Below, in pieces: positions 6,274 to 53,379 of a stretch of 64,000 nt of DNA. Below the pieces are notes generated by a model. The model made no database searches. It saw only the letters and a list, made by a program, of their open reading frames with translations, and had not been told where the DNA came from. Location: the NCBI GenBank assembly GCA_963785165.1, contig CAWAUI010000007.1, forward strand, positions 1,032,732 through 1,096,731. The letters are read 5' to 3'. The stretch is from Thermoanaerobaculaceae bacterium. GTDB taxonomy: Bacteria; Acidobacteriota; Thermoanaerobaculia; Multivoradales; UBA5704. Position numbers and translations under genes: made by a program. How positions within the stretch are numbered: the stretch's first letter is position 1; the number at the start of each line of letters is the position of its first letter.

Positions 6274-6530
6274 CATAGTGCCGGCCTCGTCTCCCATAGT
6301 TTCAACACCGAGGAACATAGGCTGAAGTGTGGGAAACAATGTTCTCGCGCTTAAATACATAGTTCCAGCCTTGACGTCCATAGTTTCAACACCGAGGAAC
6401 ATAGGCTGAAGTGCGGGAAACAATGTTCTCGCGCTTAAATACATAGTTCCAACCTTGACGTCCATAGTTTCAAAGCCAAGGAACTAAGTGTGAGATGCGA
6501 GAAACAATGTTCTCGCGCTTCGCGGCCGGC
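6274..6530. repeat. AT-rich tandem repeat, about 88-bp unit x about 2.7 copies, each unit holding an inverted repeat GGAACAT-N22-ATGTTCTC
   Basis: Unit tccatagtttcaacaccgaggaacataggctgaagtg[t/c]gggaaacaatgttctcgcgcttaaatacatagttcca[g/a]ccttgacg occurs twice nearly perfectly, plus a degenerate third copy. It lies in the 700-bp gap between two convergent genes. Confidence 0.8.
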
Positions 6531-10745: not shown

Positions 10746-11345
10746 ATGATGGACATTCCGTATACCACCAAGCTCCGGCCCGATACCGGCCTGTACAACG
10801 CCAAGCTGGGGATCTGGCTGTTCCTGGCGTCCGAGGTGATGCTGTTCGGCGCCCTGTTCTCCTCGTACGTGCTGCTGCGCACGGGGGCCCCTCCGGGCAC
10901 CTGGCACCATGGCCGGGAGTACCTGAGCGTGCCGCTCGCGACCCTCAACACGATCGTGCTCATCGGCTCCTCGGTGACCATGGTGATGGCGTGGGCGTCG
11001 CTCAAGCTCAACGACTTCAAGAAGTACAAGATGTACATGGCCATGACGTTCCTGGCCGGCGTGGGCTTCCTGATCATCAAGGGGATCGAGTACAACGCCA
11101 AGTTCCACCACGGCTACTTCCCGAGCAAGAACACGTTCCTCGCCATCTACTTCACGCTGACGGGCCTGCACGGCCTGCACGTGATCGGCGGGATGATCGT
11201 CAACGGCTACTTCTGGGGCCCCGGCTCGAAGATGTGGAAGACCCAGCCCGACCGGTTCGCGAACCGGATCGAGGTGGCGGGCCTCTACTGGCACTTCGTG
11301 GACCTGGTGTGGATCTTCCTGTTCCCGGTCCTGTACCTGCTCTAG
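10746..11345 (+). CDS. ctaE: Cytochrome c oxidase subunit III
   Basis: MMDIPYTTKL...GLYWHFVDLVWIFLFPVLYLL. It starts 4 nt after the coxI stop. Confidence 0.9.
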   Translation: MMDIPYTTKLRPDTGLYNAKLGIWLFLASEVMLFGALFSSYVLLRTGAPPGTWHHGREYLSVPLATLNTIVLIGSSVTMVMAWASLKLNDFKKYKMYMAMTFLAGVGFLIIKGIEYNAKFHHGYFPSKNTFLAIYFTLTGLHGLHVIGGMIVNGYFWGPGSKMWKTQPDRFANRIEVAGLYWHFVDLVWIFLFPVLYLL

Positions 11346-11363
11346 GCGAGGAGAGAGACGACG

Positions 11364-11669
11364 ATGAGCGCAACCGACGCTGATTCGATCCGGAAACAGA
11401 CCCGGGCCTACGTCGGGGTCTTCCTGGCCCTGATGGTTCTGACCGTGCTGACGGTGGCCGTCAGCTACTTCCACATGCCCGTCGTCTGGGCCGTGGTCGT
11501 GGCCCTGATCATCGCCAGCTTCAAGGGTTCGCTGGTGGCGGCGGTGTTCATGCACCTCAACCACGAGCGCAAGGCGATCTACTGGCTGCTGCTGCTGACG
11601 GTGCTCTTCTTCATCATGCTGATGGCGATCCCGTCGCTGTGGCATTGGGACGGGCGGTACGTGCGGTGA
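11364..11669 (+). CDS. Cytochrome c oxidase subunit IV (prokaryotic caa3/aa3-type small subunit)
   Basis: About 100 aa with 3 TM; AYVGVFLALMVLTVLTVAVSYF...; its position after coxIII fits this role. Confidence 0.65.
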   Translation: MSATDADSIRKQTRAYVGVFLALMVLTVLTVAVSYFHMPVVWAVVVALIIASFKGSLVAAVFMHLNHERKAIYWLLLLTVLFFIMLMAIPSLWHWDGRYVR

Positions 11670-11884
11670 GCCTGTCGCTACGGTCGTTCCACCTGTTTTT
11701 CATCGCCGTCTCGGTGCTCCTGGCGGCGTGGGTGGGCGTCTGGGGGGTGCAGAGTTACCTTGCCACGCACAGCGTGAGCGACCTCGCGCTGGGAGTGGTG
11801 TTCTTCTTGCTCGGATTCGTCCTGTTGATCTACGGCCGGAACGTGCGGAGCAAGCTGCGCGCGCTGGCGCCGGACGAGGAGTGA
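11666..11884 (+). CDS. Hypothetical 2-TM small membrane protein in the cox operon
   Basis: The GTG start overlaps the coxIV stop (GTGA). SFHLFFIAVSVLLAAWVGVWGV...VVFFLLGFVLLIYG. Confidence 0.35.
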   Translation: MSLSLRSFHLFFIAVSVLLAAWVGVWGVQSYLATHSVSDLALGVVFFLLGFVLLIYGRNVRSKLRALAPDEE

Positions 11885-28388: not shown

Positions 28389-28429
28389 ACGGGGAGCGGT
28401 CCCGCGCCAGCACCCTCTCCTCCCATGGC

Positions 28430-28790
28430 ACCCGGACCTCTTCCCATGGCAGCTCCCCTTCTTGCCGCGCCACCTCCCCCTCGTCCCGCGGCAACCGGCA
28501 GTGCTCCCGAGTCACTCCCCCCTCTTGCCGCACCACTCCCCCTTCTTGCCGAGACACCCCCCCTCCTTGCCGCGCCTCTACCCTCTCTTACCCGCGCGCT
28601 CCCCTCCCTTGCCGTGGGCCGCGGCGAGAGAGGGGGATGGCATCCCAACACAGGGGAGCACCGCGGCAAGAGGGGGAGGTGTCTCGGCAAGACAGGGCGC
28701 TGGCGCGGAAGCACTGCCGGTTGCCCCGGGAAGAGGGGGAGGAGGCGCGGCAAGGCGGGGAGAAGACGCGGGAGCGCTTCCGCGCACCGC
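28430..28790. repeat. GC-rich degenerate heptad repeat (C-rich CTTGCCG x about 5 direct, then CGGCAAG x about 3 inverted) forming a long imperfect inverted repeat
   Basis: cttcttgccgcgcc / ctcttgccgcacc / cttcttgccgagac / ctccttgccgcgcc / cccttgccgtggg, then cggcaagagggggaggtgtctcggcaag / gcggcaaggcgggg. The central pair cttgccgagacaccccccctc and gagggggaggtgtctcggcaag is nearly reverse-complementary. Confidence 0.7.
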
Positions 28791-46134: not shown

Positions 46135-47292
46135 ATGGCGGGACCCATGCCGAAGATCCTCCGCAATCAACCGATCCGTACCTGGGAAGCCGGCGACAGC
46201 GTCCAGGGCTTCGCGCTCCTCACCAAGAAGGAGACGCGCCAGGACCGCAACAACAAGAGCTTCCTCGACATGGAGGTCGCGGACGCCAGCGGCTCCATGA
46301 TCGCCAAGGTCTGGTCCGACAGCCCGGCTTTGAGCGCCCGCGTCGAGCCTCACCAGTTCATCGCCTTCCGCGGCTCGGTCAAGAATTACCGCGACCAGCT
46401 CCAGCTCACCATCGACGACTGCCGCGAAGCTTCCGAGGGCGACCGCCACTACGGGTTCGACGAATCGAAGCTCATCCCGTCCACACGGGAGGACATCGAT
46501 GATCTCTGGCGGCGACTGGAGCGCCTGCTCTCCGAAGACGTGGAGCGGCCCGTCCTGCGCCGCCTGGCGGCCGAGACCCTCGCCATCCACGGCAAGGCCC
46601 TGCGCGAGCATCCGGCGGCCAAGGCCATGCACCATGCCTACCGCGGCGGCCTCCTGGAGCACGTCGTTTCCATGGCCGAGCTCGGCCGGCTCGTCTGCAG
46701 CCACTACCGGGACCTCGACCGCGACCTCGTGCTGATCGGCGTCCTGTTCCACGACCTCGGCAAGCTGATCGAGCTGGGGGCCATGCCCGCCAACGACTAC
46801 ACGCTCGAAGGGCGCCTGGTCGGCCACGTGGTCATGGGCCGCGACCTGCTGATCGAGCGCTGTGCCGCCATCGAGGGCTTCCCCCGCGATCTGCGGCTGC
46901 TGCTGGAGCACATGGTCCTCTCCCACCAGGGCAAGAAGGAGTTCGCCTCCCCCGTGGAGCCCATGACGCCCGAGGCCCTGGCCCTCCACTTCATCGACGA
47001 CCTCGACTCCAAGATCAACCAGCTCCGCGCCTCGCGCGAATCCGCCCCCGGCATCCAGTTTCACCGCGGCCTTGGGCGCTACGTCTACCTGCCACCCCTG
47101 CGCACGCCGGAGGAGATCCTGGCGGACGGGGAAGACGAGAGCGAGGAGCTCGCCGCCTTCTCCGCCGAGCCCCATGCCCTGGAGGCGGCGGAGAGCGAAT
47201 TGCCGCCAGACGTCGAAGAGAGCGACGGCACCGACGAGCCGACGACGGCGGAAACCGCGGAGGTCCAGGCGCCGCTGTTCCGGGTGGAGTAA
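46135..47292 (+). CDS. yhaM: 3'-5' exoribonuclease YhaM-like (OB-fold plus HD domain)
   Basis: OB fold (GFALLTKKETRQDRNNKSFLDMEVADASGSMIAKVW) and HD domain (HHAYRGGLLEHVVSMAEL, LIGVLFHDLGK). Confidence 0.8.
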   Translation: MAGPMPKILRNQPIRTWEAGDSVQGFALLTKKETRQDRNNKSFLDMEVADASGSMIAKVWSDSPALSARVEPHQFIAFRGSVKNYRDQLQLTIDDCREASEGDRHYGFDESKLIPSTREDIDDLWRRLERLLSEDVERPVLRRLAAETLAIHGKALREHPAAKAMHHAYRGGLLEHVVSMAELGRLVCSHYRDLDRDLVLIGVLFHDLGKLIELGAMPANDYTLEGRLVGHVVMGRDLLIERCAAIEGFPRDLRLLLEHMVLSHQGKKEFASPVEPMTPEALALHFIDDLDSKINQLRASRESAPGIQFHRGLGRYVYLPPLRTPEEILADGEDESEELAAFSAEPHALEAAESELPPDVEESDGTDEPTTAETAEVQAPLFRVE

Positions 47293-47351
47293 CATTTCGC
47301 CTTCGAACGTTGGGCTGAGCTTTCCCAGAGCGGAACCAACCTAGCCGGCGG

Positions 47352-47515
47352 CTGGCGACCTTCGCCAATTCGTGGCGAGTCTCGCCAAGCCGTGGTGACC
47401 CTCGCCAGCCCGTGGTGACCCTCGCCAGCCCGTGGCGACCCTTGCCAAGCCGTGGAGACCCTCGCCGGCTCGCGGCGACCCTCACCAAGCCGTGGCGACC
47501 CTCTCCAGGAGACAT
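47352..47515. repeat. Eight tandem copies of a 21-bp unit (consensus ccgtggtgaccctcgccaagc); each unit contains the palindrome GGCGA-NNN-TCGCC
   Basis: ...tggcgagtctcgccaagccg tggtgaccctcgccagcccg tggtgaccctcgccagcccg tggcgacccttgccaagccg tggagaccctcgccggctcg cggcgaccctcaccaagccg tggcgaccctctcc... in the 367-bp gap upstream of aceA. Confidence 0.85.
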
Positions 47516-47659
47516 ACACCTTCCGCACGCATTCCCGGACGGTGGGTCTCCTTTCGAGGACGAAATTGGCGCGCTTTTCGCACAGGGAATCTGGTACCAT
47601 GGCTTTGCCGCGTCGCGGCATCGCGCTGCGGCAAAACCTCAAGAAGAGAGGGAGGATGT

Positions 47660-48958
<1,299 letters not shown>

Positions 48959-48975: not shown

Positions 48976-50544
48976 ATGGCCATGGAAATCCGTATCGCGG
49001 GGCCGGAGACGGCCTCGCGCGACCGAGTCCTCACACCGGAAGCGCTGGCCTTCGTGGCCGATCTCCAGGAACGCCTCGGGGTGGCCCGGGACGACCTGCT
49101 GTGCCGGCGGGCCCAGCGCCAGGAAGACTTCGCCCGGGGGATCGAGCCGGGCTTTTCCGAGCACACGCAAGCCATCCGCCAGTCGGATTGGACCGTGGCT
49201 CCGGCGCCCCCGGACCTCCAGGACCGCCGGGTCGAGATCACCGGCCCCGTGGAGCGCAAGATGATGATCAACGCCCTCAACTCGGGGGCCAGCGTCTTCA
49301 TGGCCGACTTCGAGGACTCGCTCTCCCCCACCTGGGAGAACGTCGTCGAGGGGCAGGCGAACCTCATGGACGCCGTCCGGCGCCAGATCGACTACCGGAG
49401 CCCCGAGGGGAAGGAGTACCGGCTCGCGGACCGCACCGCCACCCTGCTCGTCCGCCCGCGCGGCTGGCACCTGCCGGAGCGGCATGCCACGATCGACGGC
49501 GTCCCCGTGTCCGCCAGCTTGTTCGACTTCGGCCTCTACGTCTTCCACAACGCCGCGGAGCTGCTGAAGCGCGGCAGCGGCCCCTACTTCTACTTGCCCA
49601 AGCTCGAGAGCCACCTCGAGGCCCAGCTCTGGAACCGCGCCTTCGAGGAGGCCCAGGACTGGCTCGGGCTCCCGCGCGGCACCCTCCGCGCGACCGTGCT
49701 CATCGAGACCCTCACCGCAGCCTTCGAGATGGACGAGATCCTCTGGGAGCTGCGCGACCACGCCGCCGGCTTGAACGCCGGCCGGTGGGACTACATCTTC
49801 AGCATCCTCCGCAAGTTCCCCGAGAGCGCCGCCGTGCTGCCGGACCGCTTCCAGATCACCATGGCCGTGCCCTTCATGCGCGCCTATACCGACCTCCTGG
49901 TGAGCACCTGCCACCGGCGCGGGGCCCATGCCATTGGCGGCATGGCCGCGTTCATCCCCAGCCGGCGCGACGAGGAGGTCAACCGGCGAGCCCTGGAGAA
50001 GGTGCGGGAGGACAAGGAGCGCGAGGCCCGCCAAGGCTTCGACGGCACCTGGGTGGCCCACCCCGACCTCGTGCCGGTCGCGAAGGAGATCTTCGACCGC
50101 GTCCTCGGCGACCGGCCGAACCAGAAGGATGTGCTGCGAGACGACGTCGACGTATCCGCCGCCGACCTGCTCGATTTCCAGGTCCCGGGGGGCCGCATCA
50201 CCGAGGAGGGAGTGCGCTCCAACATCTCGATCGCCCTCCAATACCTCGATTCCTGGCTCCAGGGCCAGGGCGCCGTCGGCATCCGCAACCTCATGGAAGA
50301 CGCCGCCACCGCCGAAATCTCCCGTTCCCAGCTCTGGCAATGGGTGCGCCACGGCGCCCGTATGGACGACGGCCGCCCCATCACGGCGGAGCTTTACCGG
50401 GATCTCAGGGATCAGGAGCTGGCGGCTCTGGGAGGATCCGGTCAGGGACGCCTGGGCGACGCCGCACGGATCCTCGACGACTTGGTGCTCAGCAGTGGCT
50501 TCGTGCCGTTCCTGACGGTCGAGGCCTACGAGCTTCTGGACTAG
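48976..50544 (+). CDS. aceB: Malate synthase A
   Basis: [27 protein letters not shown]; the catalytic region is [13 protein letters not shown]; about 522 aa. Confidence 0.95.
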
Positions 50545-51443
50545 GCAACCGCCAGAAAAAACCCCTCGGCCACCCAGAACCGGAACCAAGCGCGCAGCTC
50601 CGCCGCCAGCGACTCGTCATCGAGATCGCTGGCGGCCGCCGCGTCGTTGATCGCCTCTCCGACGGTGCCCCCGGCAAGAAGCGCGCTCAGCAGGGCGTGT
50701 TGCGGCGCCGTCAGCGGATACCTCCGCACGATGAACTCGCGGCGGGTCAGGGCCACGTGCTCCGCGCCGGGCTCGGGCAGCGGCACCTCTTCACCCTCCG
50801 CCGCCCGCCTGGCCGCCGTGTAGTAGGCGTTGATGGGGAAGCGGAAGGTGAAGACGTGCAGGCACGGCACAGGGACCAGCCGCGCCTCCGCGAAACGCTC
50901 GGGAGGGAAGGCCTGAAGCGCCTCCGGGGTCAGGAGGGTCTTGCCCTCGACGCCGGGGCCGTCGAACACCTTGGCGACCGCCCACTCGAAGGTGGCGAGG
51001 TCGATGAGGAAGTCGGGCCAGCTGAGCTCTTCGGTGTCCCCGGGATCCTCGGGCCGGGTCTCTTCCAGGTACCGTGCGAAGCTCGCCCCCAGGTGGTCCA
51101 GGGTGTAGCTGCTCGGCGGGTATTGCTGGAGGTACTCGAAGGCGAAGCCGTCGAAGACCTCGTCGCCCAGCGCCTGTTTCAGCATGGGAAAGTTGGCCCC
51201 CAGGCACTCCAGCAGCCGCGAGTAGTAGGCGTTGGCGTAGATCGACATCCGCTCGGTCGCCGTGAGGTTGCGCGAACGGCGCACCACCGCTTCCAGCTCG
51301 CCACGGTCCAGCCGGATGAGCGCCTGGGCCTCGTCCGAGACCGCGCCCCCCTCGACTCCGCCGGGATGGGCGACCACGGCGTGGAACCAGCGCTGCACCA
51401 CCTCCAGAGACCTGGGTCCACCGCTCACCGGGTTCTCGCTCAC
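50541..51443 (-). CDS. DUF2063 protein, the partner subunit (BufC/MbnC-like) of the DUF692 enzyme
   Basis: [14 protein letters not shown]..., [16 protein letters not shown]. The GTG start overlaps the DUF692 stop (GTGA). The 3' end overlaps the aceB stop by 4 nt. Confidence 0.8.
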
Positions 51444-52372
51444 TCCACCTCCGGCCGGATGTGGTGGAGCGGATGGGGCACGTGCGAGCCGCCCCCTACG
51501 AGCACGGGGGCCTCCTCGACCGCCTCCTCATCGAGCTTCGGCAGGTGCTCGCCCATGAACTTCTTGGCCTTGAGCACCTCCTCGTGCACCACGGGGAAGG
51601 GCGGGATGTTGGCGTCCCACTCCAGCAGCGTCGAGACACCGCCCGTGAGCTGGTGGGCCGTCCGGTAAAGCTCCCAGACCGGGTCGGTCACGTGGTTGTC
51701 GTGCGTGTCGATCAGGTGGGTCGTGTAATCCGTGTGCCCCGCGAGATGGAACTGGACGATCCGCTCGTGCGGCAGGGAGCGGATGAACCGGTCCGGGTCC
51801 ATGTCGTGGTTGAAGCTCGACACGTAGACGTTGTTGACGTCGAGCAACAGGCCGCAGTCGGCCTCCTCGGCCATGCGGGTCACGAACTCCCACTCGTCCA
51901 TGGTCGAGTCCTGGAAGGTGATGTAGGAGCTCGGGTTCTCCAGCACGAACGGCCGCTCCAGCACGTCCTGCACGATCTTGACCCGCTCGACCACGTGGCG
52001 CAGCGTCTCCTCCGTGAACGGCACGGGGAGCAGGTCGTGCGTGTTGCGGCCCATCACCCCGGTCCAGCACAGGTGGTCGGAGATCCACTTCGCGTCGATC
52101 TCCTTGGCCAGCCGCTTCAGCTTCTTCAGGTACTCGATGTTCACGGGATCGGTCGAGCCAATGGACAGCGAGACCCCGTGCATGACGACCGGATAGCGTT
52201 CGGCGATCTGCTGGAGCACGTAGCGCGGACGGCCCTGCGAATCGATGAAGTTCTCGCTGATGATCTCGAACCAGTCCACCTCCGGCTGGTTCTGAAGGAC
52301 GTAGTCGAAATGGACGGACCGCAATCCCACTCCCAGTCCGAGGTTGTCGTGTCCGAGGCGGGGCGGCTTCAT
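51440..52372 (-). CDS. DUF692 / MNIO (multinuclear non-heme iron oxidative enzyme, MbnB/BufB-like) TIM-barrel protein
   Basis: GGAAGGAG RBS, then [22 protein letters not shown]; FEIISENF; [11 protein letters not shown]; [21 protein letters not shown] (metal ligands). Confidence 0.85.
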
Positions 52373-52435
52373 CGGGGGCTCCTTCCGAATAGGGGCGGCC
52401 CCGGGGGCCGCCCCTACGGTCATTTCGTCAGCAGA

Positions 52436-52956: not shown

Positions 52957-53379
52957 TCACCAGCTCATCTGATACAGCATCCAGTACACCACGACGCCCG
53001 TCACCGAGACGTACAGCCAGATCGGCAGCGTCCAGCGGGCGATGCGGACGTGCTGGACCCAGCGTTTCCGGTACGCCCTGGCGACGGTGAGAACGGCCAG
53101 AAAGGGCACGGTCGCCGCGAAGACGGTGTGGGTGATCAGGATGGTGAAGTAGACCGTACGCGCCGTGCCGGTGCCCGGGAAGTGCTTGGACCCCACCTGG
53201 GCGTGGTAGATCAGGTAGGACGTGAGGAACAGCACCGAACAGGTGAGGGCGGCGATCATGACGTTCCGGTGGGCGATGAGCCGCCGCTGCCGGATGAGCA
53301 CGTAGCCCGTCGCCAGCAGGAGCGTGGCGAGGGCGTTCAAGGCCGCATTGAGCGCGGGAAGATCCTGGACCTGGAGCAT
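52957..53379 (-). CDS. DUF420-family 4-TM membrane protein (CtaM-like)
   Basis: LPALNAALNALATLLLATGYVLIRQRRLIAHRNVM...HVRIARWTLPIWLYVSVTGVVVYWMLY is characteristic of DUF420. Confidence 0.6.
   Translation of the reverse strand: MLQVQDLPALNAALNALATLLLATGYVLIRQRRLIAHRNVMIAALTCSVLFLTSYLIYHAQVGSKHFPGTGTARTVYFTILITHTVFAATVPFLAVLTVARAYRKRWVQHVRIARWTLPIWLYVSVTGVVVYWMLYQMSW

Follow-up and report, generated by a model that had tools for sequence, protein, structure and literature searches.

The 64,000-nucleotide stretch of DNA analysed here (hereafter the window; GC content 66.6%) carries a yhaM-like gene followed, on the same strand, by the glyoxylate-shunt genes aceA and aceB (Table 1). An initial reading made from the sequence alone (the sequence-only reading) had described an aceA-aceB operon preceded by a GGGAGG ribosome binding site, and both assignments were borne out by profile matches to isocitrate lyase and to malate synthase domains, and by the position of the GGGAGG motif. 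The closest relatives of the AceA protein are annotated as Acidobacteriota/Thermoanaerobaculia. Within the 367-bp spacer separating the yhaM-like gene from aceA lies a GC-rich tandem array of short palindromes, which starts 60 nt past the co-oriented yhaM-like stop codon and is the subject of the present analysis. Downstream of aceB, on the opposite strand (50541-52423 and 52957-53379), genes encoding DUF2063/HvfC-like, MbnB/TglH/ChrH-family RiPP-modification enzyme and DUF420 proteins were observed, an arrangement also seen in L068, one of the related loci described below.

Among the approximately 40 annotated genes of the window, no Pfam match was obtained to IclR/LysR regulators, sigma-54 activators, transposases, rep/par, integrase, phage or cas families, and a search for tRNAs likewise gave none. 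A known RNA family or riboswitch was rejected, as Rfam searches returned no match at either gathering or relaxed thresholds. Neither a sigma-70-like promoter nor an intrinsic terminator was scored in the interval 47100-47800.

Table 1. Features at and around the yhaM-like/aceA junction of the window, with coordinates of the corresponding junction in related loci.
Feature	Position	Strand	Basis and remarks
yhaM-like gene (OB-fold and HD-domain 3'-5' exoribonuclease homologue)	46135-47292	+	Pfam-type domain annotation; synteny in L001, L003, L004, L067 and L068
yhaM-like/aceA junction, window	47293-47566
yhaM-like/aceA junction, L002	1-230
yhaM-like/aceA junction, L003	1431-2405
yhaM-like/aceA junction, L067	5269-9705
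yhaM-like/aceA junction, L068	2128-9835
Left flank of the putative inserted segment	47293-47352	+	Window-specific, directly after the yhaM-like stop; no counterpart in L001 (alignment)
Array of eight 20-bp head-to-tail units	47353-47507	+	Tandem Repeats Finder, autocorrelation, pattern and nhmmer profile
Predicted hairpin AGGAGAC...GUCUCCU	47507-47552	+	-27.1 kcal/mol, z = -3.76; right end of the putative insert pairs with the conserved ancestral block
Right junction of the putative insert, GGAGACATACACCTTCCG region	47508-47522	+	CC(A/C)GGAGA common to L049; GGACAT..ACCTTCCG resembles L026
Sigma-54-type -24/-12 element TGGCGCGCTTTTCGCA	47567-47582	+	GG at 47568-69, GC at 47580-81
Predicted aceA 5'-UTR hairpin, TTGCCGCG / CGCGGCA / TGCGGCAA dyads	47604-47635 (outer pairs 47601-47638)	+	-24 kcal/mol, z = -3.3
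GGGAGG motif of aceA	47650-47655	+
aceA	47660-48958	+	NCBIfam isocitrate lyase, 731 bits vs cut-off 562
aceB	48976-50544	+	Malate synthase domains

The presence of eight tandem palindromic copies at this place, as originally described, was confirmed by Tandem Repeats Finder, which reported 7.8 copies of period 20 with 78% matches and a score of 170, and by a two-unit pattern that matched five times in the window versus not once in 100 dinucleotide-preserving shuffles. Details of the repeat unit required revision. Autocorrelation across 47340-47520 was high at lags of 20 (0.71) and 40 (0.72) and at the level of the background (~0.27) at a lag of 21 (0.26); the period is therefore exactly 20 bp, not the 21 bp initially proposed. 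Furthermore, the eight units are in register as a TGGCGA-N3-TCGCCA dyad, 6+3+6 rather than 5+3+5, followed by a 5-nt spacer with a CG end, and each of the eight deviates from the dyad by zero to two mismatches. Perfect dyads are found solely in units 1 and 2; units 3 to 5 carry one G-T type mismatch apiece, with units 3 and 4 being identical to each other, and units 6 to 8 carry one or two real mismatches, such that decay is greatest toward the 3' edge. Identical central units and decayed edge units constitute a slippage-type head-to-tail signature. The orientation of the array is set by its CCC loop and spacer, and a unit profile built with nhmmer accordingly scored 30-39 bits on the forward strand versus only 5.6 bits on the reverse strand. 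Single units are predicted to form hairpins (6-bp stem, 3-nt loop), at -8 kcal/mol when the dyad is perfect and at -6 kcal/mol when it includes a G-U pair. The whole insert was only modestly more stable in folding than shuffled sequences (z = -2.3 as RNA and z = -3.0 as DNA), with pairing mostly between units and less within them.

No further copies of the array, even degenerate ones, were detected in the 64-kb window by pattern or by an nhmmer profile derived from all units, nor were unit copies found by the profile in approximately 150 kb of related DNA. Repeats of other kinds are present in the window. The non-coding interval that separates a rhomboid gene from a molybdopterin-oxidoreductase gene (28402-28790) contains a large imperfect inverted repeat with 147-nt arms that are 72% complementary. 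Tandem units of approximately 21 nt make up this repeat, reading CCCCTTCTTGCCGCGCCACCC in the left part and the complement of that sequence in the right part. A relatively AT-rich 84-bp tandem repeat (2.7 copies, 91% matches) occupies positions 6294-6520 between ferritin-like and FG-GAP/ASPIC genes. A link between the array and these repeats was rejected, as their units differ. The array motif was also not found in a literature search.

The sequence-only reading had seen no plausible coding role for the frame through the repeat, and this view holds: units spaced 20 nt apart fall into each of the three reading frames in turn, AceA homologues share the start methionine, and a coding repeat was rejected on these grounds. 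The consensus array is open in all frames, and a chimeric peptide from its two strands had no match among 5.8 billion predicted proteins. Also considered was an assembly artefact, or an incorrect copy number of a short tandem repeat, given that such repeats may collapse or expand in short-read assemblies. This explanation is extremely unlikely, since the 155-bp array fits within or near one read or read pair, its units differ from one another and are thus uniquely placeable, and homologous arrays occur in independent assemblies (see below). A look-up of the exact AceA protein, for copy-number comparison with other assemblies, returned no record.

Comparison with the loci of six AceA relatives (L001-L004, L067 and L068; 81-93% identical) revealed that the aceA-aceB pair is kept in 6/6 and the array in 0/6. 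Not even a single dyad with up to two mismatches was found upstream of aceA in any of the six, matches to the dyad being confined to conserved codons inside aceA. In L001, whose AceA is 93% identical, the yhaM-like, aceA, aceB gene order is kept with a spacer of just 143 bp and no array. A short stretch of this locus (CGACCGTCTCTCC) resembles one unit, which counts against an insertion and leaves room for a partial origin in situ. The contents of the yhaM-like/aceA junction differ among the relatives. L001 has nothing added there, L003 and L004 have a Glyoxalase_3 gene, and L002 has a long palindrome of another kind (AGAGACGGCCC...GGGCCGTCTCT); L067 carries three genes at this place and L068 carries seven. 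Among the seven are an HTH gene and a fragment of a Type ISP restriction enzyme. The junction is a hot spot for variable DNA.

To the left of the array, the window-specific flank shows a short, non-significant likeness (TTCCCAGAGCGGA) to L026, a locus from another genome introduced below; to its right, the similarity to L026 and to a further locus, L049, is short and not significant by BLAST. Defined element ends or target-site duplications are not claimed, as the likeness of the flanks, noted by eye and by pairwise alignment, did not reach significance in BLAST. The stable hairpin predicted across the right junction (Table 1) is a feature of the window, the equivalent regions of L001 and L002 folding no better than shuffled sequences. 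Because it has almost no U-tract and folds only in the window and not in L001 or L002, we do not call it a terminator; for the block upstream of the promoter that is conserved among relatives, a terminator reading was rejected, as a stable hairpin forms in the window alone.

Arrays of the same type were identified in two other genomes. The two-unit pattern (gap 2-10), run against 185,579 species genomes, yielded 44 loci, all but one of which were unrelated and were rejected, being mostly coding repeats (periods 9, 18 and 21) or isolated dyad pairs. The exception, L026, from a metagenome-assembled genome (MAG) of Acidobacteriota, comprises five units of period 20 with the same dyad, the same GTC and CCC loop subtypes as in the window, and CG-ended spacers that were not demanded by the search pattern; an ORF that ends about 80 nt before this array passes the Pfam Y1_Tnp model (31.2 bits vs a cut-off of 23). 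From a metagenome scan with a period-20-specific pattern a single locus, L049, was recovered; five of its units are good and three are decayed, and its 3' junction has the CC(A/C)GGAGA sequence also present in the window. This array is located between the end of a hydrolase-like gene and a VOC-like gene, with no aceA. As flank similarity was non-significant by BLAST, homology of the three arrays is argued from their shared unit, period, spacer, loop subtypes and junction. Read in the sense of the CCC loop, each of the three follows a co-oriented stop codon at a distance of 50-100 nt (n = 3, not significant), and no sigma-54-like element was seen by eye near the L026 or L049 arrays.

The collection scans gave one array locus per genome, the L026 MAG included, and the three instances each belong to a separate genome; dispersal is thus evident between genomes, not within one. 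Copy number differs by locus (eight units in the window, five in L026, and five plus three in L049), and, together with the identical adjacent units and decayed edges noted above, this favours the variable-number tandem repeat that the sequence-only reading had offered as its alternative to an operator. That reading had named a dispersed repeat unrelated to aceA as the result that would overturn it, and the occurrence of this array type at unrelated loci in other genomes comes close to such a result.

The sequence-only reading had also noted room for a promoter between the array and aceA. No sigma-70 promoter was scored there; the interval does contain a sigma-54-type element, whose GG-N10-GC block is present in all seven aceA leaders (window and six relatives) despite unrelated DNA upstream. 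Across these seven Acidobacteriota leaders the element is located 81-150 nt upstream of the aceA start (2550-2565 in L001), with the variants TGGCCCGCTTTTCGCA, TGGCTCGTTTTTCGCA and TGGCGCGATTTCTGCA in leaders other than that of the window. The consensus of sigma-54 -24/-12 promoters is TGGCAC-N5-TTGCW, and TGGCGCGCTTTTCGCA is the sole match in the window to a pattern of this kind. The element is independent of the array and lies outside the repeat element. This conservation points to the glyoxylate-shunt operon being transcribed in an RpoN-dependent manner in the clade.

Between this element and aceA, the hairpin predicted in the 5'-UTR has a counterpart of the same shape in L003 (about 2493-2520), and dyad words of the TGCCGC...GCGGCA type occur in five of the seven leaders (window, L002, L003, L067 and L068). 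Because the words are missing from L001 and L004, the hairpin behaves as an indel of approximately 45 bp; it could represent a regulatory RNA structure or a protein-binding site. With the sigma-54-type element in seven leaders and the hairpin words in five, the conserved cis-elements of aceAB are therefore the promoter and the 5'-UTR hairpin, not the array. The apparent driver of aceAB in the clade is thus a conserved sigma-54-type promoter accompanied by a conserved 5'-UTR hairpin. This is the more useful by-product of the analysis, as it makes control of the glyoxylate shunt in uncultured soil Acidobacteriota amenable to testing.

The position of the array relative to this promoter bears on the function first proposed for it, namely that of an operator array for aceAB under IclR/RamB/LysR-type control. 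In its broader form, this proposal holds that the eight dyads bind a dimeric or oligomerising factor, either an IclR/LysR-type repressor or a sigma-54 enhancer-binding protein (bEBP), which controls aceAB. The array is placed 60-215 bp upstream of the conserved -24 element, where sites for enhancer-binding proteins usually fall, such that co-option is conceivable; a Sigma54_activat (bEBP domain) protein is encoded in a related genome (L054); and dyad symmetry with regular spacing near two helical turns has precedent in tandem palindromic operators such as the MetJ metboxes. However, the six relatives share the promoter element and have neither the array nor a single upstream dyad, and the same array stands beside unrelated genes at loci where no sigma-54-like element was seen. 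Nor did the search for a local IclR-family regulator succeed, there being no Pfam regulator-family match among the annotated genes of the window. The period of 20 bp corresponds to 1.9 helical turns, so that successive sites would rotate by about 34 degrees around the helix, and with decayed edge units only 2/8 dyads are perfect. Furthermore, conservation of both spacers and loop subtypes between arrays points to common descent of whole units, not to convergent binding sites. We thus regard control of aceAB through the dyads as quite unlikely. Judged by comparison of the leaders, the array is not a conserved cis-regulatory apparatus of aceAB, and a regulatory use of it is unsupported.

Island-like inserts at the yhaM-aceA junction of relatives might alternatively suggest that the array is what remains of a plasmid or phage replication or partition site after integration of such an element, comprising iterons or a centromere-like site such as F sopC. 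Such sites typically consist of tandem units of 17-43 bp, often with dyads, and phage contigs carrying two or three copies of a similar dyad (TGGCGAATCTCACCA) with a 20-bp period, beside other iterons, were indeed encountered in a scan of viral contigs. This origin is nevertheless very unlikely, given that there is no rep, par, integrase or phage Pfam match among the annotated genes of the window and no AT-rich unwinding region, and that the phage family differs in flanks and composition and was found because the search pattern selects the dyad. Having unrelated AT-rich flanks, the phage family was judged non-homologous to the array. As an observation on the phage sequences themselves, the AT-rich contigs L058, L060-L064 and L066 (IMG/VR), as well as L038, contain two or three copies of TGGCGAATCTC(A/G)CCA at 20-21-bp spacing, adjoining iteron-like repeats (TTACTAAACCAATCGCT, GTGTTACC); this region is probably a phage origin or operator region.

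The Y1_Tnp ORF next to the L026 array raises the question of a link to repetitive extragenic palindromes (REPs). Homologues of this ORF, which are plentiful in Thermoanaerobaculia, bear the name 'REP element-mobilizing transposase RayT'. REPs are defined as palindromes of 20-50 nt behind a GTAG or CGTC tag, present in hundreds of copies and forming a REPtron (PMC8266576, PMC3733652). The units could accordingly represent a true REP/BIME cluster, with a Y1 transposase of the L026 family (RayT, TnpA_REP) mobilising them on single-stranded DNA. In addition to the location of the L026 array about 80 nt past the stop codon of the Y1_Tnp protein, the units are short hairpins resembling the group-3 REPs of S. 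maltophilia, which have an 8-bp stem and a 3-nt loop (PMC8266576), REP clusters in head-to-tail form are known (PMC3733652), and flanking structures of an atypical kind, without GTAG and with a CnGA foot, are reported for the class 3 Y1 genes of acidobacteria (PMC6006769). The array units do not match these CnGA-foot structures.

We examined six RayT loci, namely L026 and its relatives L050 (93% identical), L051/52 (87%), L054 (84%), L055-57 (67%) and L069 (92%). The array abuts the RayT gene in L026, but no array units occur within 0.6-10 kb of flanking sequence at the five other loci, which share a different flanking repeat (AATCGGGTGGAACCTATTC) that is not enriched in the window. The window itself contains no RayT homologue. 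The L026 array is absent from the 93%-identical locus L050, and the whole stretch from the RayT stop codon to the conserved repeat differs between the two, so that the array again corresponds to a lineage-specific segment. Moreover, the tetranucleotides preceding the 17 units of the three arrays are GCCG, CCCG, TTCG, CTCG, CGCG and TCCG, and a GTAG or CGTC tag is absent on both strands. Scanned material contained approximately one locus per genome, as opposed to hundreds for REPs; of the defining traits, the units thus share the hairpin and have neither the tag nor the high dispersed copy number. Mobilisation of the units as REPs by the L026-family transposase is, in light of these results, unlikely. 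Separately, RayT-family genes of Thermoanaerobaculia-like genomes were observed to be followed by one to five copies of CTCTACAATCGGGTGGAACCTATTC with C-runs (L026 1129-1340; L050 11117-11164; L054 ~11150-11700), and this repeat may be the real cognate repeat of these genes.

In summary, syntenic relatives lack the array, homologous ones stand in unrelated contexts, the junction occupied by the array is variable, and its copy number is low. We consider it reasonably probable that the array represents a recent, lineage-specific insertion, into a variable junction, of a rare, low-copy REP/minisatellite-like hairpin-repeat element that expands by slippage. A segment of approximately 200-230 bp (roughly 47296-47522), with the array at its core, would have been inserted in the lineage of the window only, between the yhaM-like stop codon and the conserved promoter-proximal block of aceAB, with transposition or recombination as the presumed route of arrival. 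Once in place, its copy number would change through slipped-strand mispairing, as the identical central units and decayed edge units suggest. The family would comprise rare, low-copy, non-coding elements of Acidobacteriota-type sequences, each 20-bp unit of which may form a hairpin as single-stranded DNA or RNA. The effects of the array are probably incidental: it would give the upstream mRNA some eight extra hairpins in its 3'-UTR, in the fashion of a REP/BIME cluster, and would shift whatever is upstream approximately 225 bp farther from the sigma-54 promoter.

A more far-reaching possibility, to which we attach little likelihood, is that the arrays are undescribed small mobile cassettes of Acidobacteriota, consisting of phased hairpin/dyad blocks recognised by a dedicated protein (the HYH-type RayT near L026, or another DNA-binding protein), and that upstream of a sigma-54 promoter such a cassette might act as a portable enhancer or insulator that rewires aceAB. 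If instead insertion and slippage of a low-copy repeat element account for the array, it would exemplify the turnover of intergenic repeats, with no regulatory discovery attached, and its annotation as an aceAB operator would be unwarranted. It would also provide a tag-less, strictly phased, low-copy addition to the extragenic palindromic repeats of bacteria, which have barely been described in Acidobacteriota (Thermoanaerobaculia-like).

Among known systems, CRISPR arrays resemble the present one in having regularly spaced, partly palindromic direct repeats, but here 15-nt repeats alternate with near-constant 5-nt spacers, with no unique spacers, no cas-family Pfam match among the annotated genes of the window and no Rfam match; by their membership criteria, the array belongs neither to CRISPRs nor to iterons and centromeres. 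Repeated dyad sites at regular spacing are shared with the MetJ metboxes, which form a tandem palindromic operator array, with NtrC/bEBP sites, and with the F sopC centromere (12 x 43 bp, with a 16-bp dyad), and the position of the window array relative to the sigma-54-type promoter matches that of NtrC/bEBP upstream activator sites. Unlike such operator and centromere arrays, that of the window is not conserved at orthologous promoters, has no regulator or par genes nearby and recurs at unrelated loci, and its eight sites with conserved spacers differ from the known organisation of upstream activator sites. In arrangement the array resembles the MIRU-type minisatellites and intergenic VNTRs of Mycobacterium, which likewise form head-to-tail intergenic arrays at several unrelated loci with locus-dependent copy number; the homogenised centre and decayed edges of the array are those that slippage predicts. 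MIRU units are, however, 46-100 bp long and non-palindromic, whereas the array units are palindromes of 20 bp, a period that is not a multiple of 3. The arrays differ from RAYT-associated REP/BIME sequences in lacking a GTAG/CGTC tag, in their strict 20-bp phasing with a 5-nt spacer, in their occurrence at about one locus per genome, and in that most RayT genes of the L026 family have no array and the window has no such gene. With REP/BIMEs they share short extragenic hairpin palindromes in head-to-tail clusters, located after stop codons in 3'-UTR or intergenic DNA, as well as presence or absence between close relatives and, in one of the arrays, an adjoining RayT-family gene (PMC3733652, PMC8266576).
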